Assembly (NCBI GenBank): GCA_045124315.1
Contig: JBGVLO010000009.1
Span: 5,348 to 69,347, forward strand
DNA from: Lachnospiraceae bacterium
GTDB taxonomy: Bacteria > Bacillota > Clostridia > Lachnospirales > Lachnospiraceae
Length of the DNA: 64,000 nucleotides
Reading direction: 5' to 3'
Shown: piece by piece, positions 3,450-28,331 of the stretch
How positions within the stretch are numbered: position 1 is the stretch's first letter
How the letters are laid out: every line of letters starts with the position of its first letter
Notes under the pieces: model-generated
What the model was told of the DNA's origin: nothing
The model's database searches: none
The model's input: only the letters and a program-made list of their open reading frames with translations
Position numbers and translations under genes: made by a program

Positions 3450-3473
3450 GCCCCTTGCAGGGGGCTTTTTTTT
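3450..3473 (+). terminator. Intrinsic terminator-like hairpin (GCCCC-loop-GGGGC + T8)
   Basis: GC stem followed by eight T residues. It carries the recurring 11-mer AAATTGCCCCT (see findings). Confidence 0.55.
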
Positions 3474-3549
3474 ATGTTACAATTTTTCGTATATGAAAGG
3501 AATGTAAGTTGTGAAGATAGTTGTAAAAGATAAGATTTCTATTATGTTA

Positions 3550-3745
3550 CATGTATTAATCGCAGCTATCAACGCATGAAAAGGGAAATCGGTGAGAATC
3601 CGATACGGTCACGCCACTGTGATAGGGAGCTGCATATACTGGTGCACCAAAAAAAATTTATTGTTTGGTGTACTAGCCACTGGAATGATATTCTGGGAAG
3701 GCATATGTATGCTGAGAACTTAAGTCAGGAGAACTGCTTACATTT
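3550..3745 (+). promoter_or_regulatory. Cobalamin (B12) riboswitch 1
   Basis: Conserved blocks AAAAGGGAAATCGGTGAGAATCC, ACGGTCACGCCACTGT and GCCACTGG...GGGAAGGC, plus the B12 box AGTCAGGAGAACTGC. It lies upstream of the ECF operon. Confidence 0.85.
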
Positions 3746-3805
3746 TTAAGAATATTCTTGCGACAGACGGGAACTCTTAAAATATGGAATGCGTAATGCG
3801 AGTAG

Positions 3806-3848
3806 GCATATTTTCTTTTGGAAGAAAAAGAAATCATATGCTTTTTTC
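3806..3848 (+). terminator. Intrinsic terminator, likely riboswitch 1 expression platform
   Basis: Hairpin GCATATTTTCTTTT...AAAAAGAAATCATATGC followed by T6. Confidence 0.6.
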
Positions 3849-3875
3849 GAATATCATTTTTTGTATTGCTATGTT

Positions 3876-3904
3876 AGAGACAGTCTGTGGACTGTCTCTT
3901 TTTC
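3876..3904 (+). terminator. Second terminator-like hairpin in the riboswitch 1 leader
   Basis: AGAGACAGTC-tgtg-GACTGTCTCT followed by TTTT, 45 nt before the start codon. Confidence 0.5.
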
Positions 3905-3951
3905 GCTATATAAGAAACTTTTTAAAAGTATAAGAAATAGGTGATGATGTG

Positions 3952-4983
3952 ATGAAAAAATTTAAGAAAATACTTGGTATTCTTGCGGCAGTTGTAGTAG
4001 TAATCATGATTGGATCTAATATTAAATTGACTACAGTGCAAACTCATAAGCAAGAGCAAAAACAATTGCAGGAAGAACAGTTATCGGGTGATGGAATACA
4101 AGAAGAAATAATAGAAATGACGGAACCGCAAATGCAGATTGGGGAAGAGCAGACAAAAGAAGAACCCGCAAAACAAGAGAAAAATAAGAAAAAGAAGACA
4201 GAACATATTTCGGATAAGAAAGCAAATGGGGAAGAAAAGAAGACAGATACTGCAAAAATAAAAGAAAAAAGTAAGAAAGTAAAAAAACAAAACAGGAAGC
4301 AGGAAAATAAGCAGGAAAAGAATACGACAGTAGATCAGAAAAAAAAGACAGAAAATAAGAGCGGAAAGAAAAGTACGCAAAATACAGAGAAAACAGATTA
4401 TGCACAGAACAATAATTCTGTAAATGCACAAGAAGCTTCGCCAGAAACGGTAACGACTGAAAAGAAAGAAGAAAAAAGTGCGAATATTGCGGAAAAAGTA
4501 GCAGAAGAGGGAAATGCAAATCCACAAACGAATGATGCAGAAAAGACAGTAGCAACGGCGAAACCAACAGTTACAGAAAAATCAGACAAAAAGACCATTG
4601 TTTGTAGTGTCACAATTGATTGTTCCTCCTTATTAAATCATATGGATGAATTAGAAGACAATATAAAATCGTTTGTACCAACAGATGGTGCAATCTTAAA
4701 GAAGATGGAGATTACTATGGAAGATGGAGAAAGTGCCTATGACTGTCTTGCAAAGGCGTGTAAGGAAAATGATATAGCAATTGATGCAGAGTATACAGCT
4801 GTCTATTCCGGTTATTATGTAAAAGGAGTTGGCTACTTATATGAAAAAATAGCGGGAAGAATGAGCGGATGGTTGTATCAGGTGAATGGAAAAACGCCCA
4901 ATGTAGGGGCCTCTAGTTACACTCTCAAAGAGGGAGATGAAGTGAAATGGATTTATACCTGTAGTGGAAGGGTGGGAAGCTAA
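3952..4983 (+). CDS. Membrane-anchored DUF4430 (transcobalamin beta-domain-like) protein with a long K/E-rich linker
   Basis: N-terminal TM/signal anchor (ILGILAAVVVVIMIG) and about 180 aa of low-complexity K/E/Q sequence. The C-terminal roughly 120 aa (VCSVTIDCS...GWLYQVNGKTPNVGASSYTLKEGDEVKWIYT) matches the DUF4430 pattern. First gene after B12 riboswitch 1. Confidence 0.8.
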   Translation: MKKFKKILGILAAVVVVIMIGSNIKLTTVQTHKQEQKQLQEEQLSGDGIQEEIIEMTEPQMQIGEEQTKEEPAKQEKNKKKKTEHISDKKANGEEKKTDTAKIKEKSKKVKKQNRKQENKQEKNTTVDQKKKTENKSGKKSTQNTEKTDYAQNNNSVNAQEASPETVTTEKKEEKSANIAEKVAEEGNANPQTNDAEKTVATAKPTVTEKSDKKTIVCSVTIDCSSLLNHMDELEDNIKSFVPTDGAILKKMEITMEDGESAYDCLAKACKENDIAIDAEYTAVYSGYYVKGVGYLYEKIAGRMSGWLYQVNGKTPNVGASSYTLKEGDEVKWIYTCSGRVGS

Positions 4984-5852
4984 TGTGGATGTATTTTGCA
5001 AAACTTCATCCGGTAGTGATTGCAGTTTATCTAATTGGAATGTTTGGGATTACAATGTGTAGTATGAATCCCTACATTGTGGGTGGCTCTTTGTTCGTAT
5101 CGTTTTTTCTCAGTTGTCTGGCAGAGAAGGCATTTTTAGGAAAGCGATTATTGGCCATGGCGGTCCCAATCCTGTTTTTTGCAGTGGGCATTCTGCCATT
5201 GTTTTCTCATAATGGAGTGACGCCATTGTTTTATATAAATGATATGCCTGTGACACTGGAAACAATTTGTTATGGTGTAGTAATGAGTGGTTTGCTCGTT
5301 GCCATAGGACAATGGTTTCAAATATGGAATGTTTGGATTGATTCGGAACGTTTTCTTTATCTATTTGGTAGAATTTCGCCAACTTTGGCATTGCTCGTAT
5401 CCATGGTATTGCGATTTATTCCGATGATGCTTCGGCGGTTTCGCCATATTCAGGACATTCAAAAAGGAATGGGATATACCAGTGAAGATATGACAATAGC
5501 AGATCGTTGTCGCTTGTTTGGGAAAGAATTGTCAATTTTAGTATCTTGGTCTTTGGAGCATTCTATGGACACTTCCATGTCCATGGAGGGAAGAGGTTAC
5601 GGAACTTGTAAGCGAACTAGTTTTCACAGATTTTATTGGAAAATAGAAGATGTAGTTATGTTGATTGTAGAAATTGTGTTGTTCCTCATTGTTATTGGAG
5701 CATTTTTGCAAGGAAAATACAAAACGTATTATTTCCCGGTTATGTTGCTGAAACCTATTTTAGAGGAGGATATTATTGGGGTAATAGGACTTATTGGTCT
5801 TTCTCTATTGCCGTTACTTCTACAAGGAAAGGAGATATTATGTCACAAATAG
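4983..5852 (+). CDS. ECF transporter transmembrane (T) component, CbiQ/EcfT family
   Basis: Polytopic membrane protein with the C-terminal EcfT-type motif SLEHSMDTSMSMEGRGYG. Its start overlaps the stop of the upstream gene. Confidence 0.85.
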   Translation: MWMYFAKLHPVVIAVYLIGMFGITMCSMNPYIVGGSLFVSFFLSCLAEKAFLGKRLLAMAVPILFFAVGILPLFSHNGVTPLFYINDMPVTLETICYGVVMSGLLVAIGQWFQIWNVWIDSERFLYLFGRISPTLALLVSMVLRFIPMMLRRFRHIQDIQKGMGYTSEDMTIADRCRLFGKELSILVSWSLEHSMDTSMSMEGRGYGTCKRTSFHRFYWKIEDVVMLIVEIVLFLIVIGAFLQGKYKTYYFPVMLLKPILEEDIIGVIGLIGLSLLPLLLQGKEILCHK

Positions 5853-7519
5853 AATGCATACAGGTGAGTTTTCGATATCCAAAACAGGAACAATTTGTAT
5901 TAAATAATGTAAACTTTTCCATTGAGGCGGGAGAGATGGCAGTTCTGTGTGGGAAATCCGGGTGTGGCAAAAGTACATTGCTGCGTTTGATGAAGGCATG
6001 TCAGGTTCCGGCAGGCGAGAAAAAAGGAAAAATTTCGTTAGCTGGAGAAGAAGTGGAAAATATAGAAAAGGCAATGGCAGCGCAGAAGATTGGTTTTGTC
6101 GGACAAAATCCAGAAGCCCAGATTGTGACAGATACCGTATGGCATGAACTGGCATTTGGATTAGAGAGTCTTGGAATTCCCAATCATGAAATGCAACGGA
6201 GGATTGCAGAGATTGCAGAGTATTTTGGTATAAGAGAGTGGTTTGATAAGCCTACTGATCAACTTTCAGGAGGACAAAAACAGATTTTGAATTTAGCTGC
6301 TGTAATGATTATGCGACCACAGATACTTTTATTAGATGAACCAACTTCTCAATTAGATCCTATTGGAGCGGAACGCTTTTTACATACATTAAAACGGATC
6401 AACAAGAATTTTGGTGTGACTATTTTACTGTCAGAGCAATGCTTAGAAGAAGTGTTACCAATTGTAGATCGAGTATTTTTATTGCAAGATGGAGAACTTG
6501 CGGAAGTAAAAAACATTAGAGAGACAGGTAAAGTATTTTATGAAAAAAAGAGTGAAGTGTTTCATGCGTTACCTATTGCTACAAGATTGTTTGTAGAATG
6601 TAAGCAACAAGGAGAGGAACCGTGGCATGTTTCGGAGGCAGTGGAATGGCTGGGGGAAAAAAATGATATTGTGGAAAAAGTACAACAGATACAGACAAAG
6701 CAGAAGAAAAGGGAAGAGAAAGAGCCGGTAGTTTTGGAAGCAAAACAGTTTGCATTTACTTATGATAAAAAACAGCCGTACAGTTTACAAGATTGTTCGC
6801 TAAAGATTCATAAAAATAGTATTTCTGCAATTTTAGGGGGAAACGGTGCAGGAAAAACCACAGCACTTAAAGTTTTGGCGGGAATTTACGCACCCCAAAA
6901 AGGAAAGAGAATTGCAAAGGGAAAAGTCGTTTATTTACCACAGGACCCGCAGTTGCTTTTTACAGAACCTACTGTATGCGAAGAACTAGAGGTTGTGTTC
7001 GTGGAACAAAGCAAAAAGTATGCCAATTTGTCAGAGGATGAAATTGTAAACAAAGTGAAAACGATGTTGGAATTTATGGAATTATTGCCGTTTCAAGGGC
7101 AACATCCCTTTGATCTATCAGGTGGGCAGCAACAGCGATTGGCCATTGCAAAACTATTACTATTAGAACCGGATATTTTGTTATTGGATGAGCCTACAAA
7201 AGGTTTGGATGCTGCTTTTAAACATAAGCTTGGAGAGTTATTAGAGAGACTAACTATGCAAGGAAAAACAATTGTATTTGTGTCCCATGATGTAGAATTT
7301 TGTGCGGAGTATGCAAATTATTGTGGTTTGTTATTCCGGGGAACCATGTTGCAATTAGAACCATCAAAAGAATTTTTTGCAAAGAATTATTTTTATACAC
7401 CGGCAGTACATCGAATCTTTCAGTATTTATATGAGCCAAGTGAAATCATCAATTACAAACAGGCTATGACGGTGTTACGTCCTTTATTTGGCCTAGAGGG
7501 CGAAAAAAGGATAGGATAA
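5840..7519 (+). CDS. ECF transporter fused double ATPase (EcfA1-EcfA2 type)
   Basis: Two ABC cassettes: GKSGCGKST / LSGGQKQ / LLLDEPTSQLD and GGNGAGKTT / LSGGQQQR / LLLDEPTKGLD. The start MSQIECIQVSF at 5840 has RBS AAGGAGA; the 5636 start in the ORF track is read-through inside ecfT. Confidence 0.9.
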   Translation: MSQIECIQVSFRYPKQEQFVLNNVNFSIEAGEMAVLCGKSGCGKSTLLRLMKACQVPAGEKKGKISLAGEEVENIEKAMAAQKIGFVGQNPEAQIVTDTVWHELAFGLESLGIPNHEMQRRIAEIAEYFGIREWFDKPTDQLSGGQKQILNLAAVMIMRPQILLLDEPTSQLDPIGAERFLHTLKRINKNFGVTILLSEQCLEEVLPIVDRVFLLQDGELAEVKNIRETGKVFYEKKSEVFHALPIATRLFVECKQQGEEPWHVSEAVEWLGEKNDIVEKVQQIQTKQKKREEKEPVVLEAKQFAFTYDKKQPYSLQDCSLKIHKNSISAILGGNGAGKTTALKVLAGIYAPQKGKRIAKGKVVYLPQDPQLLFTEPTVCEELEVVFVEQSKKYANLSEDEIVNKVKTMLEFMELLPFQGQHPFDLSGGQQQRLAIAKLLLLEPDILLLDEPTKGLDAAFKHKLGELLERLTMQGKTIVFVSHDVEFCAEYANYCGLLFRGTMLQLEPSKEFFAKNYFYTPAVHRIFQYLYEPSEIINYKQAMTVLRPLFGLEGEKRIG

Positions 7520-7549
7520 AGGAGAATAGTTTGTGGAAGGAGCGGATAC

Positions 7550-8356
7550 ATGAAAGGAAAGAAATTATGGCATTTACAAGCGAGAGAAATTGTTATGTTA
7601 GCAGTGATGATCGCTTTGTGTGTAGTTGGAAATACAATCTGTTCCCATACTGTTCCGTTGCATGCGGGGACTGCAATTACAATTTTGTCAGGTATTTCTC
7701 TTGGAGCAGGACCAGGTTTTATAGTAGGTATAGTCGCAAGGTTTGTATGTAATTTTTTCGATGGACAAGGACCTTGGACCATTTGGCAGATGTTTTCCTG
7801 GGGACTCTTAGCTGCAATTAGTGGTGTTTGTTTTCAGCCGGTAAAACGGCAGACTTTATTGGAAAGACAGCGTAAGAAAAAATTATCCATAGTAGAAGTT
7901 GGCAGACAGGCAAGGGATAGTTTGATGATCCTTCTTTGTATGATGGTAGCACTGTTGTGTGGATTGCTAGTGGTCTTACTTACTGGAAAAAGTTTAGACG
8001 ATATGGTAGGGTGGCGCCTCTATGCATGGGGCGGAGTTGGATTACTTATGGGGGTCTTTTTTAAAAAGAAAAAATTAGTGGTGCATCCGTTGGTTATGTC
8101 TGTGTATACATTGTGCATCGTATTTATTGTTTATGGTGGAATTATGAATTTTGCCACATTGGTAATGCAGCATTTGGTGAATAAAGGAGAGGATCCAATG
8201 ACATTACAAGCACTACGTGCTCTTTATATTACAGGGGTCCCTTATGATTTGAGCCATGCCATTGGTGCCGCTATTTGTGTATTTTTTGTTGGAGAATCGC
8301 TTCTTCAAAAAATGGAGAGGATTCAGATAAAATATAACATATTCCCAAAGAAATAG
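7550..8356 (+). CDS. Putative ECF substrate-specific (S) component, corrinoid-specific by context
   Basis: 268-aa multi-TM protein with no other domains, directly after ecfT and ecfAA in a B12-riboswitch operon. Specificity is inferred from context only. Confidence 0.6.
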   Translation: MKGKKLWHLQAREIVMLAVMIALCVVGNTICSHTVPLHAGTAITILSGISLGAGPGFIVGIVARFVCNFFDGQGPWTIWQMFSWGLLAAISGVCFQPVKRQTLLERQRKKKLSIVEVGRQARDSLMILLCMMVALLCGLLVVLLTGKSLDDMVGWRLYAWGGVGLLMGVFFKKKKLVVHPLVMSVYTLCIVFIVYGGIMNFATLVMQHLVNKGEDPMTLQALRALYITGVPYDLSHAIGAAICVFFVGESLLQKMERIQIKYNIFPKK

Positions 8357-8399
8357 GGAAATCAAAGGACGCAGAACATGCGTAGAAAGTGAGGTAAAT

Positions 8400-10526
8400 A
8401 TGAAATATCAAAAAACAAAGCATACCTTTTTGGCAATGCTATTAATTGTAACAATGATTTTTACACCGTTATCTTTTGGTGGTGAGGTTAGTTATGCAGC
8501 TTTCTCAAATAATAAGTTGGTGGTGTATGTGGCTGCGGAAGGAAAAAATGCATCAGGTGCGGCAGTTACTGTGAGTAAAACGGCAGTTGTTATGGAAACA
8601 GGCAAGACTGCAGCAGATGCCATTCAGCAAGTATTAGACAGTTCAGAGTACAAAGATAATTATGTGATTTCAACAACTTCATGGGGCAAATCTTTAGATT
8701 CGATCAATGGTTTAGATACCTATTCGGTAGGAAATGATTGGTATTATTGGAGCTTTATGGTAAATAAGGAATATGCTCCTGTTTCCATTGGAGAATATGA
8801 ATTGAAGGATCAAGATCAGATTAGTTTAATTTACAGTTATGACAATTGGAATACTACAACTTCTGATTTTATGGATGATACTACAAAAAATCCAAGCAAA
8901 GAACAGGCCTCTAAGTTGCTAAATGCAGCGATTGTAAATAAAAACACAATGGCAAAAGTGCTATTTCATAATATCTTTGAAAATGGTGCAAAGTTACCGG
9001 AATTGGGTGCAACTTCCAATGGGTACTATACCATATATTCTTTAGCAGAAGCAGGATTAGAAGTGCCAGAGTTTTATGCCAATGTATACAACAAACTTGT
9101 AGAAGATTTGAAGACATTTGAAAATGGTGCTGCATTGTCAGACGGAACAACAAAAGATAGTTTACTAAATAGTGGATATGCCAGCCCATATTACGCAAAA
9201 ATTGCATTAGCTGTGACTGCAATGGGATACGATGCTACCGATGTAGGTGGAATTAATTTAATAGAAAAACTTGCAAACCGTGAAATTTTTCAGAAATCTG
9301 TAAAAGCTGCAGATTATGGAGCATATGGAAGAGAAGGTATGGTTTTATTTGCAATCGATGCAGGAAATTATACATTGCCAGTAGGTGAAAATTACATTAC
9401 ACGGGCAGAATTGATCAATGGAGAAATGGCTTCGGTTATGGATGCTATTGAAACAGCAATCGCTTGGAATTCTTTTGATTCAGCAGCTATGGCAATTCAA
9501 AGTCTTGCACCATATGTAAATCAAGATGTGGAGGGTGTCGATAAGGAGCAGGTAAAACAGATTACAGATTGTGCCATTGGTTATATGCAAACAATGCAAG
9601 AGAGCAACGGTTCTGTTGGAAATTGCTGGACATTGGCACAAGTAATGTATGCTGCTGGAAAATTCGATATTGATATTTTGGATGAAACGGATGCAGATTT
9701 TATTAAGAATGGTGTGACACTGTTTGATTGTGCAGACATATATGTTGATACTGATTCCAATACGATTGACGAGGAGTTAATGAGTTATCAACCAGAACAG
9801 CTGTTGCGAGGATACTCTGCAACGATCAACGCAGCAATAAAGGCTGGAGAGACATACACAGAAGTTGTTACAAGTTCTGCAGTTGTAGTAGATCCTGTAA
9901 TTACCGAAACGCTTGCTCCGGTCGCTACAGCGCCGGCATCAACAATGCCAATTACAGAACCAACTACAGAACCAACAAGTACAGTGCCAGCACCAACAGC
10001 AGCAGCGCCAAGTAGCACGAATCCTGTTGTTACATCGGATCCGGCAATTACAGCTGCAACTTCTATAGAACAGGCAAAAATTGCGGTGATTGCAGATCAG
10101 GTATATACAGGAAAAGAAATAACACCAAATGTTAAGGTGACACTTGGAACTACAAAACTGGAAAATGGAACAGATTACGATGTTGCTTATGAGAATAACA
10201 AAAAGTTAGGAACCGCAAATGTTGTGGTGACTGGAAAGGGAAGCTATACAGGAACTTGTAGCGCAACCTTTAAGATTGTTCTTGAAAAGACAAAGATTAC
10301 AAAAATAAAGAATGGAAAAATTATATTCAAAAAAGTAATCGGAGCGAAAAAATATAAAGTAGAGATTGCAACGAATAAGAAATTTAAGAAAACCATTGCA
10401 AGTAAAATTTCGAAAAAAACAAGTGTAAACTATTCCTTTAAAAAAGGAAAGACATATTATGTTCGAGTTTGTGCAATTAATGGAAAGCATAAGAGCAGCT
10501 ATAGTAATGTAAAGAAAGTAAAGTAA
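8400..10526 (+). CDS. Secreted multidomain protein: DUF4430 + alpha/alpha-toroid (prenyltransferase-like repeats) + P/T linker + Ig/FN3-like domains
   Basis: Signal peptide, then DUF4430 pattern (KLVVYVAAEG...WYYWSFMVNKEYAPVSIGEYELKDQDQISLIYS). A helical region of about 340 aa follows with repeats such as ESNGSVGNCWTLAQVMYAAG and YYAKIALAVTAMG. Then come a Pro/Thr-rich linker (9890-10030) and two beta-rich C-terminal modules. Confidence 0.7.
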   Translation: MKYQKTKHTFLAMLLIVTMIFTPLSFGGEVSYAAFSNNKLVVYVAAEGKNASGAAVTVSKTAVVMETGKTAADAIQQVLDSSEYKDNYVISTTSWGKSLDSINGLDTYSVGNDWYYWSFMVNKEYAPVSIGEYELKDQDQISLIYSYDNWNTTTSDFMDDTTKNPSKEQASKLLNAAIVNKNTMAKVLFHNIFENGAKLPELGATSNGYYTIYSLAEAGLEVPEFYANVYNKLVEDLKTFENGAALSDGTTKDSLLNSGYASPYYAKIALAVTAMGYDATDVGGINLIEKLANREIFQKSVKAADYGAYGREGMVLFAIDAGNYTLPVGENYITRAELINGEMASVMDAIETAIAWNSFDSAAMAIQSLAPYVNQDVEGVDKEQVKQITDCAIGYMQTMQESNGSVGNCWTLAQVMYAAGKFDIDILDETDADFIKNGVTLFDCADIYVDTDSNTIDEELMSYQPEQLLRGYSATINAAIKAGETYTEVVTSSAVVVDPVITETLAPVATAPASTMPITEPTTEPTSTVPAPTAAAPSSTNPVVTSDPAITAATSIEQAKIAVIADQVYTGKEITPNVKVTLGTTKLENGTDYDVAYENNKKLGTANVVVTGKGSYTGTCSATFKIVLEKTKITKIKNGKIIFKKVIGAKKYKVEIATNKKFKKTIASKISKKTSVNYSFKKGKTYYVRVCAINGKHKSSYSNVKKVK

Positions 10527-10619: not shown

Positions 10620-11033
10620 ATGAAAAGAAAAAATATACAGCAGATCCAAAAAAATGGAGATAAAATCACACAAACAACGACGGATATTGTACTTTCCTTT
10701 GGTGGAAAGAGAAAGGTGCTCAGTACCTCTAGTTTATGTGGTGGAATACATACAGAATTAGAAGCTGTATTTAATAAGAGTTGTTATTCCGAACAGTACG
10801 CAAGTGGCTCCGGTACAGATGGTGTGATTGTGATTGGAGATATGGAATCAAATATTAAGTTGTTTCATGCAAATACAGATGTAAGACTTGGAGAGTGTAT
10901 CGGAAAAGCAGTATCAAATGCAGTTGCAGAGCAATTGCACTTACAAATGATATATGAAGAAAAATACATTTCACCAAAATCAATGTCACAAGAAAAAGCA
11001 GAAACTTTTCTTTCTGCCTATAAATATGAATAA
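10620..11033 (+). CDS. cbiZ: CbiZ-family (adenosylcobinamide amidohydrolase)-like protein, abnormally short (probable internal deletion)
   Basis: The N-terminal block LSFGGKRKVLSTSSLCGG and the C-terminal block ASGSGTDGVIVIG...RLGECIGKAVSNAV resemble the two ends of CbiZ. The central roughly 100 aa expected between them is missing (137 aa total). Confidence 0.5.
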   Translation: MKRKNIQQIQKNGDKITQTTTDIVLSFGGKRKVLSTSSLCGGIHTELEAVFNKSCYSEQYASGSGTDGVIVIGDMESNIKLFHANTDVRLGECIGKAVSNAVAEQLHLQMIYEEKYISPKSMSQEKAETFLSAYKYE

Positions 11034-11114: not shown

Positions 11115-11678
11115 ATGTCATTAATCAACAAAGAAGTAAGTGATTTTTCAGTACAGGCATTTCAGAACAATGAGTTCAAAACAGTGACAAAAGCTGATTT
11201 GCAGGGAAAGTGGAGTGTATTCTTTTTTTATCCAGCGGATTTTACCTTTATCTGCCCTACTGAATTAGAAGATTTGGCAAATAAGTATGAGGAATTTAAA
11301 AAAATCGGATGCGAGATTTATTCGGTATCCTGTGATACCCATTTCGTACACAAGGCATGGCATGATACGTCTGAGAGGATTCAAAAGATTCAGTATCCTA
11401 TGCTCGCTGATCCTACTCATGCACTTTCCAGAGATTTCGAGGTGTATATTGAAGCAGATGGTGTTTCGGAGCGTGGAACTTTTATTGTAAACCCTGATGG
11501 AAAGATTGTGGCATACGAGGTAAATGCGGGAAATGTTGGAAGAGATGCAGATGAATTGTTCCGAAAAGTGCAGGCAAGTCAGTTTGTATATGAACATGGC
11601 GATGAGGTATGCCCGGCAAAGTGGCAGCCGGGAGCAGAGACGTTAAAACCGAGCCTTGACTTGGTTGGACAGCTTTAA
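11115..11678 (+). CDS. ahpC: Alkyl hydroperoxide reductase subunit C (typical 2-Cys peroxiredoxin)
   Basis: 187 aa, FFFYPADFTFICPTE peroxidatic Cys motif and C-terminal EVCPAKW resolving Cys. Confidence 0.95.
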   Translation: MSLINKEVSDFSVQAFQNNEFKTVTKADLQGKWSVFFFYPADFTFICPTELEDLANKYEEFKKIGCEIYSVSCDTHFVHKAWHDTSERIQKIQYPMLADPTHALSRDFEVYIEADGVSERGTFIVNPDGKIVAYEVNAGNVGRDADELFRKVQASQFVYEHGDEVCPAKWQPGAETLKPSLDLVGQL

Positions 11679-11695
11679 GCTCAAATAGGAATTAC

Positions 11696-11733
11696 AACGG
11701 CATCGGTAGGGAGTAGAACCGATGCCGTTTTTG
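11696..11733 (+). terminator. Hairpin + T-run between ahpC and the reductase gene (partial terminator/attenuator)
   Basis: AACGGCATCGGT-loop-ACCGATGCCGTT followed by TTTTT. Confidence 0.6.
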
Positions 11734-11749
11734 AAAGGAAGGATTTATT

Positions 11750-13369
11750 ATGGAAAATTTATACGATGTTGTTGTGGTCGGCGGAGGTCCCGCAGGGCTT
11801 ACTGCAGCCCTGTACCTTGCCAGAGCAAAATACAGAGTACTGGTTGTAGAAAAAGAGCAGTTTGGTGGACAGATTACCATTACTTCCGAGGTGGTAAACT
11901 TTCCGGGAGTTTATAAGACAAGTGGCAAGGAATTAACAGAAACCATGCGAAAACAGGCGGAAAGCTTTGGGGCAGAATTTATGCTTGCAGAGGTAACAGG
12001 ATTTGATTTAACAGATAAAATCAGAAAAGTAATCACAAGCAGAGGAGAAATTGCGTGTTTTGGGGTTCTCCTTGCTACAGGCGCACATCCCAGAAAAATC
12101 GGATTTGACGGAGAGGAGAAGTTCAAAGGCCATGGCGTAGCGTACTGTGCTACCTGTGATGGAGAGTTTTTTGCAGGAAAAGAGGTGTTTGTCATAGGTG
12201 GCGGATTTGCGGCTGCAGAGGAGAGCGTGTTCCTAACGAGATACGCCAAACATGTAACGGTTCTGGTTAGGGGAGATGATTTTTCCTGTGCTAAGAGTAC
12301 CGCAGATGTAGCTAAGAACCATGAAAAAATAACAGTGATTACCAATAGCAGTGTGGTCAGTGTTGAGGGAGATACGGCTCTGCATAGTTTGAAATATAAA
12401 AACAATAAGACTGGAGAAATGACGGAATACCAAGCAGAGGAAGGAGATACATTTGGGGTTTTTGTATTTGCGGGATATGAGCCGGAAACAGAACTTGTGA
12501 AGGATTTTGTAAAATTAAATGAGCAGGGTTATGTTGAAACGGACGAACAGCAGAAAACCAATATTGATGGTTTGTATGCAGCCGGGGATGTCTGTGTCAA
12601 AAATCTTCGCCAGGTGGTTACTGCTGTGGGTGACGGAGCTTTGGCAGCCACAGAATTGGAACGATATGCAGCGAAAATGCAGAAAATAACCGGATTAAAG
12701 CCTCAGATAAAAGGAGTGGTCAGACAGGAAAATACTGAAAAAGAACATGAGAGAGCAAATCAATCAGCCGATTCCTTATTTGATGTAGATATGACGGCAC
12801 AGCTAAAAACAGTCTTTTTCAAGATGGAACATTCATTACGATTAAAGCTCTATCTTGATTCAAAGCCGCTATCTGAGGAACTAAAAAACTATGTAGAAGC
12901 AATGACAGAACTTACGGATAAACTCTCAGTGGAGATTGCAGAAAGCCATACAGTAAGCGAGACTCCGTGTGTTAGGGTATTTAGAGAGGATCAGTCGGAT
13001 ACAGGGCTTGCTTTTCATGGTGTGCCGGGCGGACATGAATTTACATCTTTTGTTCTGGGATTATACAATGCGGCAGGAGAAGGTCAGACTGTAAATGATT
13101 CAGTTAAAGAAAGAATTACAAAGATTAATCAAGAGGTGCATATGCAGATACTGGTTTCTCTTTCCTGCACCATGTGTCCGGAACTGGTGACAGCTGCGCA
13201 GAAGATAGCAACTATGAATCCTCTTGTTGCGGCCGAGGTTTATGATATTAATCACTTTGGCGGCATAAAGCAGAAGTACAACGTAATGAGCGTCCCTTGT
13301 CTTGTTATCAACGAGGATAAGGTATTCTTTGGAAAGAAGAACATTGAGCAGATATTGGACTTGATTTAA
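11750..13369 (+). CDS. AhpF-like peroxiredoxin reductase with permuted domain order (TrxR module first, AhpF-NTD-like double Trx fold last)
   Basis: N-terminal GGGPAGLTAA FAD motif and CATCDG redox centre. The C-terminal 200 aa align to the AhpF N-terminal domain (GVPGGHEFTSFVLGLYNAAG, SLSCTMCPELV, VMSVPCLVIN). Confidence 0.85.
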   Translation: MENLYDVVVVGGGPAGLTAALYLARAKYRVLVVEKEQFGGQITITSEVVNFPGVYKTSGKELTETMRKQAESFGAEFMLAEVTGFDLTDKIRKVITSRGEIACFGVLLATGAHPRKIGFDGEEKFKGHGVAYCATCDGEFFAGKEVFVIGGGFAAAEESVFLTRYAKHVTVLVRGDDFSCAKSTADVAKNHEKITVITNSSVVSVEGDTALHSLKYKNNKTGEMTEYQAEEGDTFGVFVFAGYEPETELVKDFVKLNEQGYVETDEQQKTNIDGLYAAGDVCVKNLRQVVTAVGDGALAATELERYAAKMQKITGLKPQIKGVVRQENTEKEHERANQSADSLFDVDMTAQLKTVFFKMEHSLRLKLYLDSKPLSEELKNYVEAMTELTDKLSVEIAESHTVSETPCVRVFREDQSDTGLAFHGVPGGHEFTSFVLGLYNAAGEGQTVNDSVKERITKINQEVHMQILVSLSCTMCPELVTAAQKIATMNPLVAAEVYDINHFGGIKQKYNVMSVPCLVINEDKVFFGKKNIEQILDLI

Positions 13370-19228: not shown

Positions 19229-20389
19229 ATGAAAAAAATTTTCATAGTTGGAATTGGAATGGGTTCCCAGGACGGAATTACGGTAGAGGCGAGAAATGCA
19301 ATTGAGTACTGTCAGCAGACCCATACACCGGTAATTCTGATACTTCCGGCAAAAGGAAGGGCGATTTCTGTGTTAGCAGAACTGCAGGGCTTCTTGGAAT
19401 TTCGGAAGGATCATACAATCAAGGGTGTGATCCTAAATGGAATCAGTCCCATGTCCGGTAAGATCCTAAAAGAAAAAATTGAACAGGAGTTTGATGTGAA
19501 AGTATATGGATGTGTGCCCACACTGGAAAATTTTCAGTTGGAAAGCAGACATTTAGGACTGGTGACACCTTATGAGCTGGAAAATTTAGAGCAGGAATTG
19601 GACAATCTTGGAGCAGACATGGAGCAGTATCTGGATATAGATGGGATTTTCGCATTGGCACATACCGCATCTGATTTAGACAGCGATTGTCCAGACGGAA
19701 TCAAAAAAATTTATGAAAAGCAAAAAGATGCAATTGCAAGTATAAAATCTGCCAAGTTAAGAATAGGTGTTGCGAGAGATTTGGCATTTTGCTTTTACTA
19801 CAAGGATAATTTGGAATTTCTGAAAGAAATGGGTTGTGAGATCGTACCTTTTAGTCCGTTACAGGATTCGGAACTTCCAAAGCAACTGGATGCAGTGATT
19901 TTTGGTGGTGGGTATCCGGAAATCTATGCCAGACAATTATCTGAAAATCAATCCATGCGGGAGAGCGTGTATGGGGAATTGTCGGAGGGGCTTTGTTGTA
20001 TGGCGGAATGCGGCGGTTTTATGTATCTTCATGAGCAGATGGAGGACCAGACAAAACAAGCGTATCCTATGGTTGGCTTTATAAAAGGTAAGACAGAGAA
20101 AAAAGAGCGGCTAGTTCGATTTGGTTATGCAGAGTTGAGTGCACAGGAGAGAAATCCTTTTCTGATGGAAGAAGAACGGATCAAAGCCCATGAATTTCAC
20201 TACTGGGACAGTGACAATAACGGCAATGCGTGGAGGGCAACAAAGCCTTCCGGTAATAGAAGCTGGGAATGTATGCATGTGACAGATACCATGCTTGCGG
20301 GATATCCTCATTTGTATTTTTATTCCAATTTACAAGTTCCCATTCGTTTTTTGCAACGCTGTGTAGAGCAAAGAAAAGAAAGAGGGTGA
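19229..20389 (+). pseudogene. cbiA: Chimeric ORF: tetrapyrrole-methylase-type N-terminus (about 30 aa) fused to cobyrinate a,c-diamide synthase (CbiA) lacking its ATP-binding N-terminal region
   Basis: MKKIFIVGIGMGSQDGITVEARNAI resembles the start of a CbiE/CbiH-type methylase. From PVILILPAKG...GVILNGIS...SRHLGLV onward the ORF is CbiA, including the glutaminase domain CGGFMYL. The CbiA P-loop region is absent. Confidence 0.7.
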
Positions 20390-20394
20390 AGCAG

Positions 20395-20922
20395 ATGCTT
20401 ACCGTAGTCTGTGGAGGAAGTGGTAGTGGGAAATCGGAATATGCCGAGAATATCATTACTGCATATAAGAAAAACTTTCCCAAGAATCAATTGATATATA
20501 TTGCCACTATGATGGGAAACGATGAAGAAACCAAGCAAAAGATTCATCGCCATCGTATGATGCGTAAAGACAAAGGCTTTGAAACCATAGAGTGTTTTTT
20601 TGATCTGAAAAATGTTACTGTGGAGGAAGACAGTATCGTACTTTTGGATTGCCTTTCTAATTTAGTAAGTAATGAATGTTTTGCGGAAGGCGGCGCAGGA
20701 GATCGGACTGCAGAGATGGTTTACAAAGGCGTAAAAAAATTAAACAGCAGTTGTAAGCATCTGGTGATTGTTACCAACGATGTGTTTGGAGATTCCATTG
20801 CCTACGACGAGTATACCCGATGGTTTATCAAGGTAATTGGAGATTTGAATTGTAAAATAGCTACCTTGGCAGACCAGGTGGTCGAAGTGGTGTGCGGGAT
20901 TCCCATACAGCATAAAGTATAG
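20395..20922 (+). CDS. cobU: Adenosylcobinamide kinase / adenosylcobinamide-phosphate guanylyltransferase
   Basis: P-loop VVCGGSGSGKSEYAE, followed by IYIAT...HRHRMMR and a conserved C-terminal half. ATG at 20395. Confidence 0.9.
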   Translation: MLTVVCGGSGSGKSEYAENIITAYKKNFPKNQLIYIATMMGNDEETKQKIHRHRMMRKDKGFETIECFFDLKNVTVEEDSIVLLDCLSNLVSNECFAEGGAGDRTAEMVYKGVKKLNSSCKHLVIVTNDVFGDSIAYDEYTRWFIKVIGDLNCKIATLADQVVEVVCGIPIQHKV

Positions 20923-20941
20923 GTTATGATTCAGGAAAGAG

Positions 20942-21706
20942 GTGATTCTGGTGATACAGTCATTGATTATTGCATTTGCAATGTATTCGAAGATACCCAT
21001 GCCAAGGGTCGATTGGAATAAGAAAAATATGAGATACGCCCTTTGTTTTTTTCCAATGGTGGGAGCGGTAATCGGTCTTGCGCTTTGGGGGTGTGTCAGA
21101 TTATGTGAGATTGGAAATATGAATGGTTTCTTTACTTCTGTTCTACTTACTATTTTGCCAATCATACTAACTGGCGGTATTCATATGGATGGCTTTTTGG
21201 ATACAGTGGATGCGTTAAGTTCCAATGCAAGTAAAGAGAGAAAATTAGAAATATTAAAGGATTCCAATTCGGGTGCCTTTGCAATTACGTTTGGTATCGT
21301 TTACCTTTTGTCGTATGTAGCTGTGTTAACGGAATTTGACTGGAGAGCACTTCCGGAATTTGCGTTATCCTTTGTGATGATACGAACACTGAGCGGATTC
21401 AGTATTGCAAGCTTTCCTCTGGCACGTAATACAGGGCTTGCAGCAACTTTCCAGGATCATGCACAGAAAAGAAATGCCACTATTATATTACTGGCAATGT
21501 TTTTGGTGGAAAACGGTATTCTATTCTACTTTGATATGATTTTAGGAGGAATTACCTTAGCAACCTTATTGATGATGTTTGGTTATCACTATTATGTTTG
21601 CAGAACCAAGTTTGGAGGCATTACTGGTGACCTTGCCGGTTTCTTTTTGCAAATGAGTGAATTGGCAGTTGCATTTACTCTGATGATAGGATGCAGGGTG
21701 TTTTAG
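20942..21706 (+). CDS. cobS: Adenosylcobinamide-GDP ribazoletransferase (cobalamin synthase)
   Basis: Polytopic membrane protein with YSKIPMP, GGIHMDGFLDTVDAL and GGITGDLAG motifs. The start is GTG at 20942 or 20951. Confidence 0.9.
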   Translation: MILVIQSLIIAFAMYSKIPMPRVDWNKKNMRYALCFFPMVGAVIGLALWGCVRLCEIGNMNGFFTSVLLTILPIILTGGIHMDGFLDTVDALSSNASKERKLEILKDSNSGAFAITFGIVYLLSYVAVLTEFDWRALPEFALSFVMIRTLSGFSIASFPLARNTGLAATFQDHAQKRNATIILLAMFLVENGILFYFDMILGGITLATLLMMFGYHYYVCRTKFGGITGDLAGFFLQMSELAVAFTLMIGCRVF

Positions 21707-21739
21707 TTACTGGAACAATATAAAAGAAGGATGGTCTTT

Positions 21740-22141
21740 ATGAAAAAAATATTAATAATAGGTGGAAAATGTCAGGGAAAGACAAAATGGACACAAGAAA
21801 ATTTTCCTGAGTATAAGAATGAGTCAGCAGAAGAATTGCTAAAAGAGAATCGGCGGGGAAGAGTAAAAGGAAAAGTATGGATCAATGGATTTCATTTGTA
21901 TATGAAACAATGGTTAAGGGCAAAAGAGGATTACAAAGAAAAGACGAAGCTTTTGGTAGAGAATCCTTCCTGGATTATTGTAAGTGACGAAATTGGTTCG
22001 GGAATTGTTCCCATGGATAAGGAAGAACGGGAATGGAGAGAAGAGACCGGACGTATGTTATGCAAGATTGCAGAACAGGCAGATGAAGTATACCGTGTAT
22101 TCTGTGGAATACCAACCATGATAAAGGGAAGTGATGTATGA
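21740..22141 (+). CDS. Short CobU-like paralogue (atypical P-loop, central region missing)
   Basis: GGKCQGKT near the N-terminus and a C-terminal half (IIVSDEIGSGIVPMDKEEREWREETGRMLCKIAEQADEVYRVFCGIP) match the CobU family. The region carrying the guanylyl-His of CobU is not present. Confidence 0.55.
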   Translation: MKKILIIGGKCQGKTKWTQENFPEYKNESAEELLKENRRGRVKGKVWINGFHLYMKQWLRAKEDYKEKTKLLVENPSWIIVSDEIGSGIVPMDKEEREWREETGRMLCKIAEQADEVYRVFCGIPTMIKGSDV

Positions 22142-23115
22142 TGCAATATTCTTTGTACTCTTGTTTGATCGGATTTCTGTTAGATTTGCTGATAGGTGAT
22201 CCTCAATGGTTTCGCTGGCATCCGATTCGATTGATTGGTCAGTGGATTGATATGTGCGAAAAAATTGTGAGAAAGTGCTTTGGAACAAAAGATAAGCAGT
22301 TATTTGTGGCTGGTATTGTGCTAGCCGTTATGGTGATGGTAGTATCAACGGGGCTTCCCTTACTGCTCCTGATCGTCTGTTATCGAATCCATGTACTGTT
22401 GGGAATTGGGATAGAGAGCATTCTGTGCTATTTTGTCTATGCAACGAAATCTTTGAAAACGGAGAGTATGAAGGTGTATGAGGCATTGGAGACAAAAGAT
22501 ATACAGGAATCCAGAAGAGCCGTTTCTATGATCGTGGGAAGAGATGTGGATCGGCTGGATGAGACAGGGGTTGCAAAAGCTGCGGTAGAGACGGTAGCAG
22601 AAAATACATCGGATGGTGTGATCGCCCCTATTTTTTATACCATGCTTGGTGGACCAGTTGCAGGTTTTCTTTATAAATCCATCAATACTATGGATTCCAT
22701 GATTGGTTACAAGAATGAGAAATACATGTATTTAGGAAGATTTGCAGCAAAGCTGGACGATGTGGTCAACTTTATACCTGCAAGAGTAAGCGCATTTCTC
22801 ATGTTACTTGCAGCAGCAATTTCGCCAGAGATGGACGCAAAAGAGGCGTGGCACATATACAAAAGGGATCGAAAAAAAAGCTCCAGTCCAAATGCAGGAC
22901 AGACAGAGGCTGTATGTGCAGGGGCCTTACATATCCAGATCTTAGGACCTGCATACTATTTTGGCGTATTACATGAGAAACCAAGTATTGGTGAGGCACT
23001 GAAACCGGTAGAGCCACTTACCATAAAGAAGGTAAATCAATTGATGTACCGGACGGCCTGGCTTGCGGTATTTCTGTTTCCTTTTATTAAGTGGGGAGTC
23101 ATCTGTCTTTTTTAG
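22138..23115 (+). CDS. cbiB: Adenosylcobinamide-phosphate synthase (CbiB/CobD family)
   Basis: LLDLLIGDPQWFRWHPIRLIG N-terminal signature in a membrane protein; its start overlaps the previous stop. Confidence 0.9.
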   Translation: MMQYSLYSCLIGFLLDLLIGDPQWFRWHPIRLIGQWIDMCEKIVRKCFGTKDKQLFVAGIVLAVMVMVVSTGLPLLLLIVCYRIHVLLGIGIESILCYFVYATKSLKTESMKVYEALETKDIQESRRAVSMIVGRDVDRLDETGVAKAAVETVAENTSDGVIAPIFYTMLGGPVAGFLYKSINTMDSMIGYKNEKYMYLGRFAAKLDDVVNFIPARVSAFLMLLAAAISPEMDAKEAWHIYKRDRKKSSSPNAGQTEAVCAGALHIQILGPAYYFGVLHEKPSIGEALKPVEPLTIKKVNQLMYRTAWLAVFLFPFIKWGVICLF

Positions 23116-23203
23116 AAGAGATACTCGCAGGGCAACCCTTTCATAAAAGTGCAAGGTTTAAGTAAATGACATTGGTTCACAGGTTAGAAAGGATGGTTGT
23201 AAT

Positions 23204-24238
23204 ATGAAGTATGGACATGGAGGAGATATCTATAGCTATCCTCAGTTAGTGGATTTTTCCGCAAATATAAATCCATTTGGAACATCCGGTGAAGTGATTG
23301 AAGCAATCAAAAAAGCGGCAGAACATGTTGCACCTTATCCGGATTTTTACTGTAGAAAATTGCGTGATGCAATTGCAAATGCGGAAGAGATTGAATCAGA
23401 AAAGATAATTTGTGGCAATGGGGCGGCAGATCTGATCTATCGGTTTGTGGCAGCAATAAAGCCACAGAAAGCATTGCTTGCGGTACCTTGTTTTTCTGAG
23501 TATGAACAGGCATTGCGGAGTGTGGGATGTGAAGTGGAGTATTACAAACTGGATTCCCAGACTTTTACTTTGACAGAGAAGTTTCTGGAAGCATTGACTG
23601 AGCAAGTGGATATAATCTGTCTCTGTACACCAAACAATCCAACGGGGATCAGTATTCCAGAGAAATTATTAGAGAAGATTATAAAAAGGTGTAAGGAAAA
23701 AAATATCGCCTTTTTATTAGATGAATGTTTTCGGGACTTTGTAGGGGAAGAAAAGCAGTTTCTTCCATATAAAGACAGGAAACACTACGATAAGATGTTA
23801 ACCTTGCGGGCATTTACGAAAATGTATGGATTAGCCGGAATTCGTTTGGGATATGGTTTTTGTGAGAATGCGCAATTGTTGGAACAGATGCAGCTTTGTG
23901 GTCCACCGTGGAATGTGTCAACAGTAGCCCAGGAAGCGGGGCTTGCAGCACTAGGTCTTACAGACTTCCCAGAAAAGATACGAAGGTATATTGAGAAGCA
24001 AAAAGAGTATTTGTATACAGAATTAAAACAAATGAATCTTATGGTATGGAAATCTGATGCAAATTATTTGTTTTTTAAAGCAGAGAAACAATTAAAAGAG
24101 AAAATGATAAAACAGGGCTTTCTTATACGGGACTGTAGCAATTATACAGGATTACAGGCGGGCTATTATCGAATAGCCGTAAAGACAGAAGAGGAAAATA
24201 AGAGACTGGTCACGGCTCTTAAGAATTCACTTAGTTAG
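23204..24238 (+). CDS. cobD: L-threonine-O-3-phosphate decarboxylase (class I/II aminotransferase fold)
   Basis: HGGDIY...DFSANINPFG start and the PLP-lysine context RAFTKMYGLAGIRLGY. The position between cbiB and cbiP is the usual one. Confidence 0.85.
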   Translation: MKYGHGGDIYSYPQLVDFSANINPFGTSGEVIEAIKKAAEHVAPYPDFYCRKLRDAIANAEEIESEKIICGNGAADLIYRFVAAIKPQKALLAVPCFSEYEQALRSVGCEVEYYKLDSQTFTLTEKFLEALTEQVDIICLCTPNNPTGISIPEKLLEKIIKRCKEKNIAFLLDECFRDFVGEEKQFLPYKDRKHYDKMLTLRAFTKMYGLAGIRLGYGFCENAQLLEQMQLCGPPWNVSTVAQEAGLAALGLTDFPEKIRRYIEKQKEYLYTELKQMNLMVWKSDANYLFFKAEKQLKEKMIKQGFLIRDCSNYTGLQAGYYRIAVKTEEENKRLVTALKNSLS

Positions 24239-24250
24239 GAGGAATAAGAT

Positions 24251-24986
24251 ATGGCAAAAGCAAAGTCTATTATGATACAGGGTACTATGTCAAATGCAGG
24301 AAAAAGTTTATTGGCCGGAGGTTTGTGCAGAGTTTTTATGCAGGATGGACTTAAGACCACACCGTTTAAGTCACAAAATATGGCTTTGAATTCTTTTATT
24401 ACAAAAGAAGGACTGGAAATGGGAAGAGCACAGGTAATGCAGGCAGAGGCTGCTGGAATCGAACCAAGAGCAATTATGAATCCTATCTTATTAAAACCTA
24501 CAAACGATACGGGTTCACAGGTTATCGTAAATGGAGAAGTCTATGGAACTATGTCAGCAATGGAGTATTATCAGAAGAAAGAACAGTTTGTGCCGGCGGT
24601 ATTAGATGCCTATCATCAGTTAGAAGATGAATTTGATATGATTGTCATTAGAAGGATATGAGATTCATATGGGTGAAACGGAACTTAAGTCCGGCACTTC
24701 CTCTCTGACTACGATCAGTAATATCATTGACAATGGAAAAGAAACAGCGGATGGCGCACAGAATGAAAATGTATATGGAAGTTATGTGCATGGAATTTTT
24801 GATTCCGATGAAGTGGTAAAAACCATTGTGGCTTCTGTCTTAGAGGAAAAGGGATTGGATTGCAGCAAGGTAAATGCCTTCCAGTTAACCAATTATAAAG
24901 AAAAGCAATATGACGCATTAGCAAAGGCAGTTCGCCTGGCATTGGATATGGAACAGGTTTATAAGATTGTGGATGCCGGTATGTAA
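24251..24986 (+). pseudogene. cbiP: Cobyric acid synthase (CbiP/CobQ) with a large internal deletion and frameshift
   Basis: The N-terminal 130 aa ([21 protein letters not shown]...) and the C-terminal 110 aa (GYEIHMGET...YVHGIFDSDE) are in different frames, joined at about 24645. The central roughly 250 aa is absent. Confidence 0.8.
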
Positions 24987-24998
24987 GGAGGTACGGAT

Positions 24999-25682
24999 AT
25001 GGAGAAGATTTTATTGGGGCAGGTATTGCCAAGAGATATTGAAAAGAGAAGCTTTGAGATTATCACAGAAGAGCTGGGAGACCGAAAGTTCCCTAAAGAT
25101 CAGGAAAGTATTATCAAACGGGTGATCCATACCTCCGCAGATTTTGATTATGCAGATAATTTATGTTTTTCTGAGAATGCGGTTGCTTTGGCAAAACAGG
25201 CAATTATGGATGGCGCCTGTATCGTAACCGACACACAGATGGCAAAGGCGGGAATTAATAAGAGATCCTTAAAGAAGTTTGGTGGGGAAGCCGATTGTAA
25301 GGAATGTGGTATTACGGAAGAAGATTCTCGAAAAAAAATGGAGCATATGTGGAATACCATGTATCAGGCAAGTTGTGCTTATGAAGGGAATCTTCGGTCG
25401 AAAAGTGGCTTTGTTGGTGGAGATGGAGAACGCATAAAGCAGTATGTGGATACCAACGATTCCTATGCAGGGGCTATGAATGCAATAGCAGCCGCAGATA
25501 TGGCTTTGGCAGGTGTGGAAAGTCGCATTCCTGTAGATCAGGTGATAGATGCCATGAGAGAAATTGGGGATGCTATGCCAATGCAGTACAAAGAAACTGC
25601 CTGTGGCGGATGTGCAGCCACGGAATGGGCAAAACAGGCAGAGGGGAATATGAGAAATGTGAATGAAGGGTCAAAAAGTTAG
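24999..25682 (+). pseudogene. cbiC: Chimeric ORF: precorrin-8X methylmutase (CbiC) N-terminal half fused to an L-serine dehydratase alpha-chain-like C-terminus
   Basis: Residues 1-100 (IEKRSFEIITEEL...RVIHTSADFDYADNL...IVTDTQMAKAGI) are CbiC. The tail AMNAIAAADMALAGVESRIPVDQVIDAMREIGDAMPMQYKETACGG matches the conserved end of the iron-sulfur serine dehydratase alpha subunit. Confidence 0.6.
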
Positions 25683-25697
25683 GAGTGAAAAATTCAT

Positions 25698-25964: not shown

Positions 25965-25968
25965 TCGT

Positions 25969-27253: not shown

Positions 27254-27254
27254 C

Positions 27255-28271: not shown

Positions 28272-28331
28272 AAAATGGGAACAATGCGATCAATGAAGTT
28301 CGAGCAAGAATCGGAAAGATAGGGAGCAAAC

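Follow-up and report, generated by a model that had tools for sequence, protein, structure and literature searches.

We analysed a stretch of 64,000 nucleotides (hereafter the window) from a Lachnospiraceae bacterium (GenBank assembly GCA_045124315.1, contig JBGVLO010000009.1, positions 5,348 to 69,347 of the forward strand), in which five tightly packed plus-strand genes, at window positions 3952-10526, lie behind a cobalamin riboswitch. In order, they encode a 343-residue membrane-anchored DUF4430 protein (DUFs), the EcfT subunit of an energy-coupling factor (ECF) transporter, a fused EcfA-EcfA' ATPase (EcfAA'), an S component and a 708-residue secreted DUF4430 protein (DUFL). We consider it likely that this operon specifies a riboswitch-repressed corrinoid importer, in which two extracytoplasmic transcobalamin-like partners relay their ligand to an S component of the CbrT type.

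How Lachnospiraceae, abundant anaerobes of the gut, obtain B12 is poorly understood, and gut communities are shaped by the contest for corrinoids. By textbook account, ECF importers work without an extracytoplasmic binding protein, and the operon type described here is the clearest candidate for an exception.

The operon and its riboswitch

The aptamer upstream of the operon aligns with the full RF00174 model (positions 1-189) at 76.2 bits, against a gathering score of 31.5 (E = 5e-17). The conserved GGGAA...CGGUG...AAUCCG core is present in the alignment, as is a B12-box-like AGUCAGGAGAACUGC, and the aptamer contains an insertion of 32 nt that the model lacks. A terminator at 3450-3465 ends the unit upstream of the riboswitch. 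Successive genes of the operon are joined by a one-base overlap (TAATG) and a 13-nt overlap, followed by gaps of 30 and 43 nt, and a search for a convincing plus-strand terminator within the five-gene unit found none. A stable hairpin just beyond the last stop codon (Table 1) possibly marks the 3' end of the transcript or stabilises it. The preliminary description of this DNA had proposed such a packed five-gene unit behind a cobalamin riboswitch, placed at 3550-3745; the full-length Rfam match encloses that interval, and open reading frame (ORF), Pfam and junction checks agree with the unit.

Two hairpins stand in tandem between the aptamer and the first gene, the second being the stronger and its site ending 48 nt 5' of the first start codon. 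In the minimum-energy fold of 3540-3910, the 3' strand of hairpin 1 pairs instead with aptamer residues at about 3683-3712, which makes hairpin 1 a candidate regulated terminator with an antiterminator alternative, an arrangement as expected of an antiterminator/terminator switch. Hairpin and U-run sites comparable to hairpin 2 occur in the leaders of nine of the ten related operons that carry a riboswitch. Most likely, the riboswitch shuts the operon off when cobalamin is plentiful, and would do so by premature termination of transcription in the leader.

A dedicated ECF module with a CbrT-like S component

The best match of the EcfT protein in the Protein Data Bank (PDB) by phmmer is EcfT of Lactobacillus delbrueckii (5d3m_D, E = 4.6e-6), over the coupling helices. 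Of its Arg-Gly motifs, the second is conserved (MEGRGY) and the first is QKGMG where the reference has QRSRG; Pfam CbiQ gives a weak match whose 17.7 bits fall short of the cut-off of 25. The EcfAA' chain, whose ATG at 5840 follows a GGAGA resembling a ribosome-binding site, scores 309.5 bits with TIGR04520 (ECF_ATPase_1) and 298.3 bits with TIGR04521 (ECF_ATPase_2), both just under the equivalog cut-offs; it also matches the NCBIfam cbiO subfamily (253.7 bits, cut-off 211.8). Two ATPase domains encoded beside EcfT and an S component are the arrangement of group I (dedicated) ECF transporters, and this arrangement recurs in 12 loci.

The S component, with six predicted hydrophobic regions, matches ECF-ribofla_trS (PF07155) at 37.3 bits (cut-off 26.7) and also the FolT family in domain libraries. 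As a single sequence, its sole significant PDB match is CbrT (6fnp_A, E = 1.4e-8); a profile of 20 homologues strengthened that match to E = 4.6e-11, the next S component, 4hzu_S, following at E = 0.93. Since 6fnp_A alone is significant, these sequence comparisons identify the S component as specifically CbrT-like. Between its conserved N- and C-terminal parts, the 268-residue protein carries an insertion of about 85 residues with a basic loop, CbrT itself being 182 residues long. The transporter assignments of the preliminary description survive these checks: its EcfT is backed by the L. delbrueckii match even though CbiQ stays below cut-off, its fused EcfA-EcfA ATPase by two ABC_tran domains in one 559-residue chain, and its polytopic 268-residue candidate for the S component by the PF07155 score, the CbrT-like identity having been overlooked. 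Coupled to its ECF module, CbrT imports cobalamin and cobinamide (PMC5997447). We thus predict that these genes encode a corrinoid importer of the dedicated (group I) ECF class and of the CbrT/CbrTUV type, a role in corrinoid uptake being well supported.

A predicted transcobalamin-like binder with reversed domain order

DUFL matches PF14478 (DUF4430) at 29.8 bits, above the cut-off of 23.8. An AlphaFold2 model was built from 22 aligned sequences (mean predicted local distance difference test, pLDDT, 83.8) and compared with the PDB using Foldseek. In this model the beta domain covers residues 39-146, the disordered Pro/Thr linker residues 494-552 and the beta-sandwich part residues 553-708. 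The beta domain superposes on that of human transcobalamin (5np4; template modelling (TM) score 0.73, root-mean-square deviation 3.3 Å, 113 columns) and also matches the DUF4430 structure 3u7z of Ruminococcus gnavus. Residues 167-481 are all-helical at pLDDT >90, and this helical domain aligns over 311-323 columns with bovine, human and rat transcobalamin (2bb6_A, 2v3n, 8ixt; E ~2e-3, TM 0.41-0.44 when normalised to the whole target). The C-terminus consists of two beta-sandwich domains matching tandems of an immunoglobulin-like (Ig) and an FN3 domain, such as the NCAM Ig-FN3 pair.

In transcobalamin, the alpha and beta domains clamp B12 between them. Because both domains of the DUFL model match transcobalamin structures, we predict DUFL to be a corrinoid binder with a complete two-domain transcobalamin-like architecture, in which beta precedes alpha, the reverse of the animal alpha-then-beta order. 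Identity to the transcobalamins is 10-17%, too low for reliable mapping of ligand contacts. The 708-residue secreted multidomain DUF4430 protein of the preliminary description is confirmed, and gains an alpha/alpha toroid that had been missed.

A further feature of DUFL is its strongly cationic C-terminal region, near window positions 10290-10523. In every complete homologue, the net charge over the C-terminal 85 residues lies between +24 and +33 (isoelectric point 10.5-11.3), whether the fold is FN3-like or Big_2-like; the L019 homologue, which runs off its contig, reaches +16. The binder body of these proteins is acidic (net charge -13 to -42), and an LPXTG motif was sought in the DUFL homologues and is absent from all. 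The cationic end and the absence of LPXTG suggest that DUFL is probably held non-covalently on anionic wall polymers through its C-terminal domain.

The tethered protein DUFs

DUFs begins with an N-terminal signal-anchor (residues 1-29), its sole hydrophobic segment and one without a lipobox, followed by some 185 residues of low-complexity linker, in which K (21%), E (16%), T and Q abound, and by a C-terminal domain at about residues 214-343; the toroid is absent. DUF4430 is recognised at residues 259-336 (E = 3.4e-15; PF14478 at 56.7 bits), and the domain is homologous to the DUFL beta domain by hhalign (probability 93.5%). Sequence and profile searches of DUFs and DUFL against the PDB returned no match, so the evidence for kinship with transcobalamin comes from Pfam, the DUFL fold match and the profile-profile comparison. 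The crystal structure 5np4 shows the transcobalamin beta domain on its own with cyanocobalamin bound, so that the ligand can be held without an alpha domain.

Four cysteines of the DUFs C-terminal domain (residues ~218, 224, 270 and 337; window 4600-4980) are invariant in 11 Lachnospiraceae orthologues, and the DUFL beta domain has none of them. They could form disulfides or a metal site, or could provide an axial ligand to cobalt as in BtuM. The membrane-anchored DUF4430 protein of the preliminary description is borne out by the hydrophobic segment and the domain match. Its equation of DUF4430 with the C-terminal (beta) domain of transcobalamin agrees with the literature, where DUF4430 is the C-terminal domain of TCN proteins (PMC4350170; see also PMC1796856), and with the DUFL fold match.

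Related loci and solitary paralogues

For comparison, one genome per GTDB species was scanned with the DUFL alignment, yielding 21 loci in which the window proteins were then located by tblastn. All but one lie in Lachnospiraceae or in metagenome-assembled genomes titled only "Eubacteriales bacterium" or "bacterium", the named genera and species including Butyribacter, Jutongia, Roseburia sp. and Clostridium spp. CAG:253 and CAG:411. The remaining locus, L021, was rejected as spurious, since it matches only the C-terminal Ig-like repeats. The five-gene order is kept in all 12 loci with enough flanking sequence, each from a different Lachnospiraceae species, and in one truncated locus, and Rfam places a cobalamin riboswitch ahead of 10 of the 12 complete operons. 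The listed homologues of the window S component are all close relatives.

In four genomes, DUFL paralogues stand alone (L009 7705-10225, L013 9744-12172, L019 628-2905 and L020 6563-9047). Upstream sequence is available for all four, and each lies directly behind its own cobalamin riboswitch; no ECF genes occur in the upstream sequence covered (about 1 to 10 kb). The L013 gene sits between clpB and znuA. The riboswitch leaders of the L009, L013 and L020 genes are only 44-56 nt long, which suggests translational rather than termination control. These solitary riboswitched genes are the strongest evidence for the corrinoid reading, as they tie the transcobalamin-like protein itself, beyond the transporter, to corrinoids.

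The beta-alpha core was also compared with 1.84 billion cluster representatives in a full HMMER pass, which returned 743 at E <= 1e-3, many of them giant multidomain proteins; the module is a building block that recurs and is far from rare.

Clostridium sp. CAG:411 and a relative carry a second cobalamin riboswitch 3' of the operon (L010, 6928-15273; L011, from 7294), ahead of a 1394-residue surface protein that combines four Big_2 repeats with a PQQ-type beta-propeller and a cadherin-like domain and matches DUF4430 weakly. The 922-residue protein that follows it has a toroid-like segment and Listeria-Bacteroides repeats.

Genomic context in the window

A cobamide late-pathway cluster lies 9-18 kb 3' of the operon (19229-28907) and encodes CobQ-like, CobU, CobS, CbiB, CobD and CobT proteins and a CobC-like phosphatase. 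Among the remnants in the same segment (Table 1), the CbiM-like piece lies just 3' of the second riboswitch, and the CbiZ remnant immediately 3' of the operon. The CbiZ remnant also occurs in the near-identical Logan contig L022, and it accompanies none of the related operons. An intact CbiZ was sought beside the related operons and none was found, the 137-residue remnant being specific to the window lineage. By sequence, then, the late nucleotide-loop and salvage genes look intact, and the ring-synthesis and cobalt-uptake genes of the 64-kb segment look decayed, a combination that fits dependence on imported corrinoids. The loss of de novo corrin synthesis claimed in the preliminary description fits the CbiC, CbiM and CbiZ remnants; its scope is this 64-kb segment, not the genome.

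Table 1. Positions of the operon, its control elements and the cobamide-related remnants in the window; DUFL domains are given by residue.
Feature	Position	Strand	Description or evidence
Cobalamin riboswitch aptamer (RF00174)	3540-3755	+	Rfam covariance-model match
Leader hairpin 1	3806-3841 (with T-run to 3847)	+	A/U-rich stem, then T6; dG -10.3
Leader hairpin 2	3876-3899 (with T-run to 3904)	+	10-bp stem, 5 G-C pairs, then T5; intrinsic-terminator-like
DUFs	3952-4983	+	Membrane-tethered, 343 aa, one transcobalamin-beta-like (DUF4430/SLBB) domain; Pfam DUF4430
EcfT	4983-5852	+	Transmembrane coupling subunit, 289 aa, polytopic; PDB sequence match to EcfT
EcfAA' (fused EcfA-EcfA' ATPase)	5840-7519	+	559 aa, two ATP-binding cassettes; ABC_tran twice, E = 2.5e-58
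S component, CbrT-like	7550-8356	+	268 aa; PF07155 and PDB 6fnp_A
DUFL	8400-10526	+	Secreted transcobalamin-like protein, 708 aa, signal peptide; DUF4430 at residues 68-146
DUFL signal peptide	residues 1-33		
DUFL beta domain	residues 34-155		DUF4430/SLBB
DUFL alpha/alpha toroid	residues 156-490		
DUFL linker	residues 491-552		Disordered, Pro/Thr
DUFL Ig-like domain	residues 553-630		
DUFL FN3-like domain	residues 631-708		Basic, net charge +24
Hairpin 3' of the last stop codon	10550-10589	+	15 bp, no U-run; -23.5 kcal/mol, z = -4.6
CbiZ (adenosylcobinamide amidohydrolase) remnant	10620-11033		137 aa; profile positions 144-191 of 191 only
CbiC half fused to serine-dehydratase fragment	24999-25682		Remnant
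Second cobalamin riboswitch	27454-27643		Rfam
CbiM-like N-terminus	28029-28271		80-aa remnant; seen by eye from the MHIMEGYLP motif, Pfam finds nothing

Directly 3' of the CbiZ remnant are AhpC-type and AhpF-type ORFs (11115-13369) unrelated to the operon, the first identified through its counterpart in L022 and the second labelled from the Pfam families of that contig. Elsewhere on the minus strand, Rfam detects an azaaromatic (yjdF) riboswitch at 50162-50287 (75.4 bits) and a Clostridiales-1 RNA at 59806-59975 (121.6 bits).

Proposed mechanism and alternative explanations

In the mechanism that we favour, both transcobalamin-like proteins would be made from the same transcript as the transporter. 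Wall-associated DUFL would capture scarce cobalamin, cobinamide or other cobamides, and DUFs, a lone beta domain on a membrane tether of about 185 residues, would help to capture the ligand or pass it on. The CbrT-like S component would then receive the corrinoid, the EcfT-EcfAA' module would drive translocation, and the imported corrinoid would feed the nearby late-pathway and nucleotide-loop genes (CobU, CobS, CbiB, CobD, CobT and CobC-like). We infer four parts of this scheme: ligand binding by DUFs and DUFL, wall retention, the order of hand-off, and termination switching.

Several observations weigh against this interpretation. ECF S components normally need no extracytoplasmic partner, and the accessory proteins may not feed the transporter. 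The CbrT match is partial, spanning only about 85 N-terminal and 43 C-terminal residues. The L010 and L011 operons, which lie directly behind an rRNA operon, have no detectable upstream riboswitch, and a permissive-threshold Rfam search of the sequence upstream of them revealed no degenerate one. In the window, hairpin 2 looks constitutive, and a clear antiterminator for this second hairpin was sought in the leader with none found. The AlphaFold2 model of the DUFs C-terminal domain, built on only 8 homologues from a word-indexed search, is poor (pLDDT 59), and its Foldseek matches are non-significant, though the top three are transcobalamin; we dropped this model as evidence. The structural comparison that the preliminary description had proposed for both DUF4430 proteins thus supports a transcobalamin fold for DUFL, the DUFs model being too poor for such a comparison. 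The sole homologous operon tested genetically, that of Lactobacillus sakei, was linked to heme rather than B12, and the literature searched, with many subscription journals outside it, yielded neither a paper measuring corrinoid binding by a bacterial DUF4430 protein nor other binding or transport data for such proteins.

A more specific version of the relay, which we regard as unlikely, would make the two proteins a two-tier ECF equivalent of a substrate-binding protein: wall-held DUFL would trap the corrinoid with very high affinity, and DUFs, with its four invariant cysteines, would extract it and deliver it down its tether to the S component. Extraction could proceed by competition for the face of the toroid, as separated intrinsic-factor fragments do, or alternatively by a Cys-cobalt contact as in BtuM. 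If true, this would define a new mechanistic class of accessory-protein-dependent ECF import.

Alternatively, the ECF module might import alone, the transcobalamin-like proteins having another B12-related role: to hoard or sequester corrinoids at the cell surface and so keep them from competitors, to strip B12 from host or dietary carriers, or to buffer or store it. S components alone bind substrate with high affinity (PMC5997447), DUFL occurs under its own riboswitch apart from ECF genes in L009, L013, L019 and L020, and L010 and L011 have further riboswitched giant surface proteins with DUF4430 and a beta-propeller. We nonetheless hold so separate a role to be improbable, because sequestration without delivery would starve the cell under the very conditions that induce the operon, and because the accessory genes bracket the transporter in strict five-gene synteny across 12 species, with overlapping or close frames that point to a shared function.

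The L. sakei work raises the question of whether the operon imports heme or another non-corrin tetrapyrrole, with the transcobalamin-like proteins as hemophores. Deletion of lsa1836-1840 cut heme uptake and complementation restored it, and heme was docked between models of the beta-like and alpha-like proteins; that study left B12 out, and its authors say that heme versus cobalamin specificity is still to be resolved (bioRxiv 10.1101/864751). For the window operon we rejected this explanation as very improbable, given its riboswitch and gene context: a cobalamin riboswitch precedes this operon, 10 of 12 related operons and all four solitary paralogues, the only PDB match of the S component is the B12 S component CbrT, and the neighbouring genes serve cobamide assembly, not heme.

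Least credible of all is a cobalt/nickel transporter of the CbiMNQO type, its riboswitch adjusting how much metal is supplied to B12 synthesis: in many genomes cbiMNQO is indeed under a B12 riboswitch, automatic annotation often labels CbiO/CbiQ-like genes in this way, and EcfAA' and EcfT give cbiO-subfamily and weak CbiQ matches, but we rejected it because the S component is of the wrong type (ECF-ribofla_trS, FolT family and CbrT, not CbiM/CbiN), the operon has no CbiN, a separate CbiM remnant lies behind the second riboswitch, and the decayed ring-synthesis genes of the segment leave no obvious use for imported cobalt.

Comparison with known systems

Like mammalian transcobalamin, intrinsic factor and haptocorrin, DUFL combines an alpha/alpha toroid with a beta (DUF4430/SLBB) domain; unlike them, it places beta before alpha, shares only the low identity given above and adds Ig and FN3 domains. 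The Bacteroides proteins BtuG, a beta-propeller, and BtuH offer a functional analogy only: they too are riboswitch-linked, surface-exposed corrinoid binders serving a membrane transporter, binding by the window proteins being a prediction. Their folds are unrelated to those described here, and the transporter that they supply is the TonB-dependent BtuB of a Gram-negative envelope. The B12-binding domain of BtuH has no known structural homologues, and a BtuH homologue lies near an ECF-like cobamide transporter in Eubacterium siraeum (PMC8941943).

Among ECF systems, ECF-CbrT of L. delbrueckii (6FNP, Santos et al. 2018, PMC5997447) has a homologous S component and EcfT. It is a group II transporter: it draws on a shared ECF module whose genes lie elsewhere, its cbrT gene belongs to an nrdJ-cbrS-cbrT-pduO cluster, and it has no extracytoplasmic partner (PMC5997447). 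The window system differs in its dedicated module, its longer S component (268 against 182 residues) and its two co-encoded transcobalamin-like genes. A dedicated transporter of the CbrT type, CbrTUV, was reportedly predicted by Rodionov and colleagues in 2009 to take up B12 or B12 precursors. In passages of two gut-genome surveys (PMC8123684, PMC6593275), CbrTUV (or CbrUVT) serves as a signature of B12 or cobyrinate-diamide uptake, and identifying B12 or precursor transporters is described as still a problem in many gut genomes; the passages on CbrTUV mention no transcobalamin-like accessory proteins.

The L. sakei operon lsa1836-1840, which Verplaetse et al. deleted and complemented, likewise has five genes, for an S component, a fused EcfAA', EcfT and exported beta-like and alpha-like transcobalamin proteins, and capture with hand-off to the S component was proposed there, for heme (bioRxiv 10.1101/864751). 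Its gene order is different, and beta and alpha are separate proteins, whereas in the window they are fused in DUFL and an extra tethered DUFs is present. That paper claims heme and makes no mention of a riboswitch, and its authors say that their S component lacks cobalamin-binding residues (bioRxiv 10.1101/864751). The window locus bears on whether the L. sakei heme assignment is general.

The operon type itself was predicted by Burroughs, Balaji, Iyer and Aravind in 2007 (Biol Direct 2:4, PMC1796856), who defined the SLBB superfamily and described secreted bacterial transcobalamin-like members with signal peptides, SLBB fused to an alpha/alpha toroid on its N- or C-terminal side, added Ig-type surface domains, a second paralogous SLBB protein in the same operon and linked CbiO-like and CbiQ-like genes. 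The hosts usually had no key B12 biosynthetic enzymes, the predicted role was scavenging of B12 or its precursors, and the bacterial relatives were proposed as the source of the animal B12 carriers (PMC1796856). The novelty claimed in the preliminary description was therefore overstated, both because of that prediction, second paralogue included, and because the L. sakei operon was studied genetically in 2019-2020. The window locus is a well-delimited Lachnospiraceae example of a kind already predicted in 2007, and with a riboswitch, five genes and clear domain boundaries it is compact enough to be a practical construct for biochemistry. To the 2007 operons, which were prediction only, it adds the identity of the S component, riboswitch control and a cationic C-terminal domain; more broadly, the additions reported here are the CbrT identity of the S component, the reversed architecture of DUFL and its cationic C-terminal domain, the DUFs cysteines and the riboswitched solitary paralogues.

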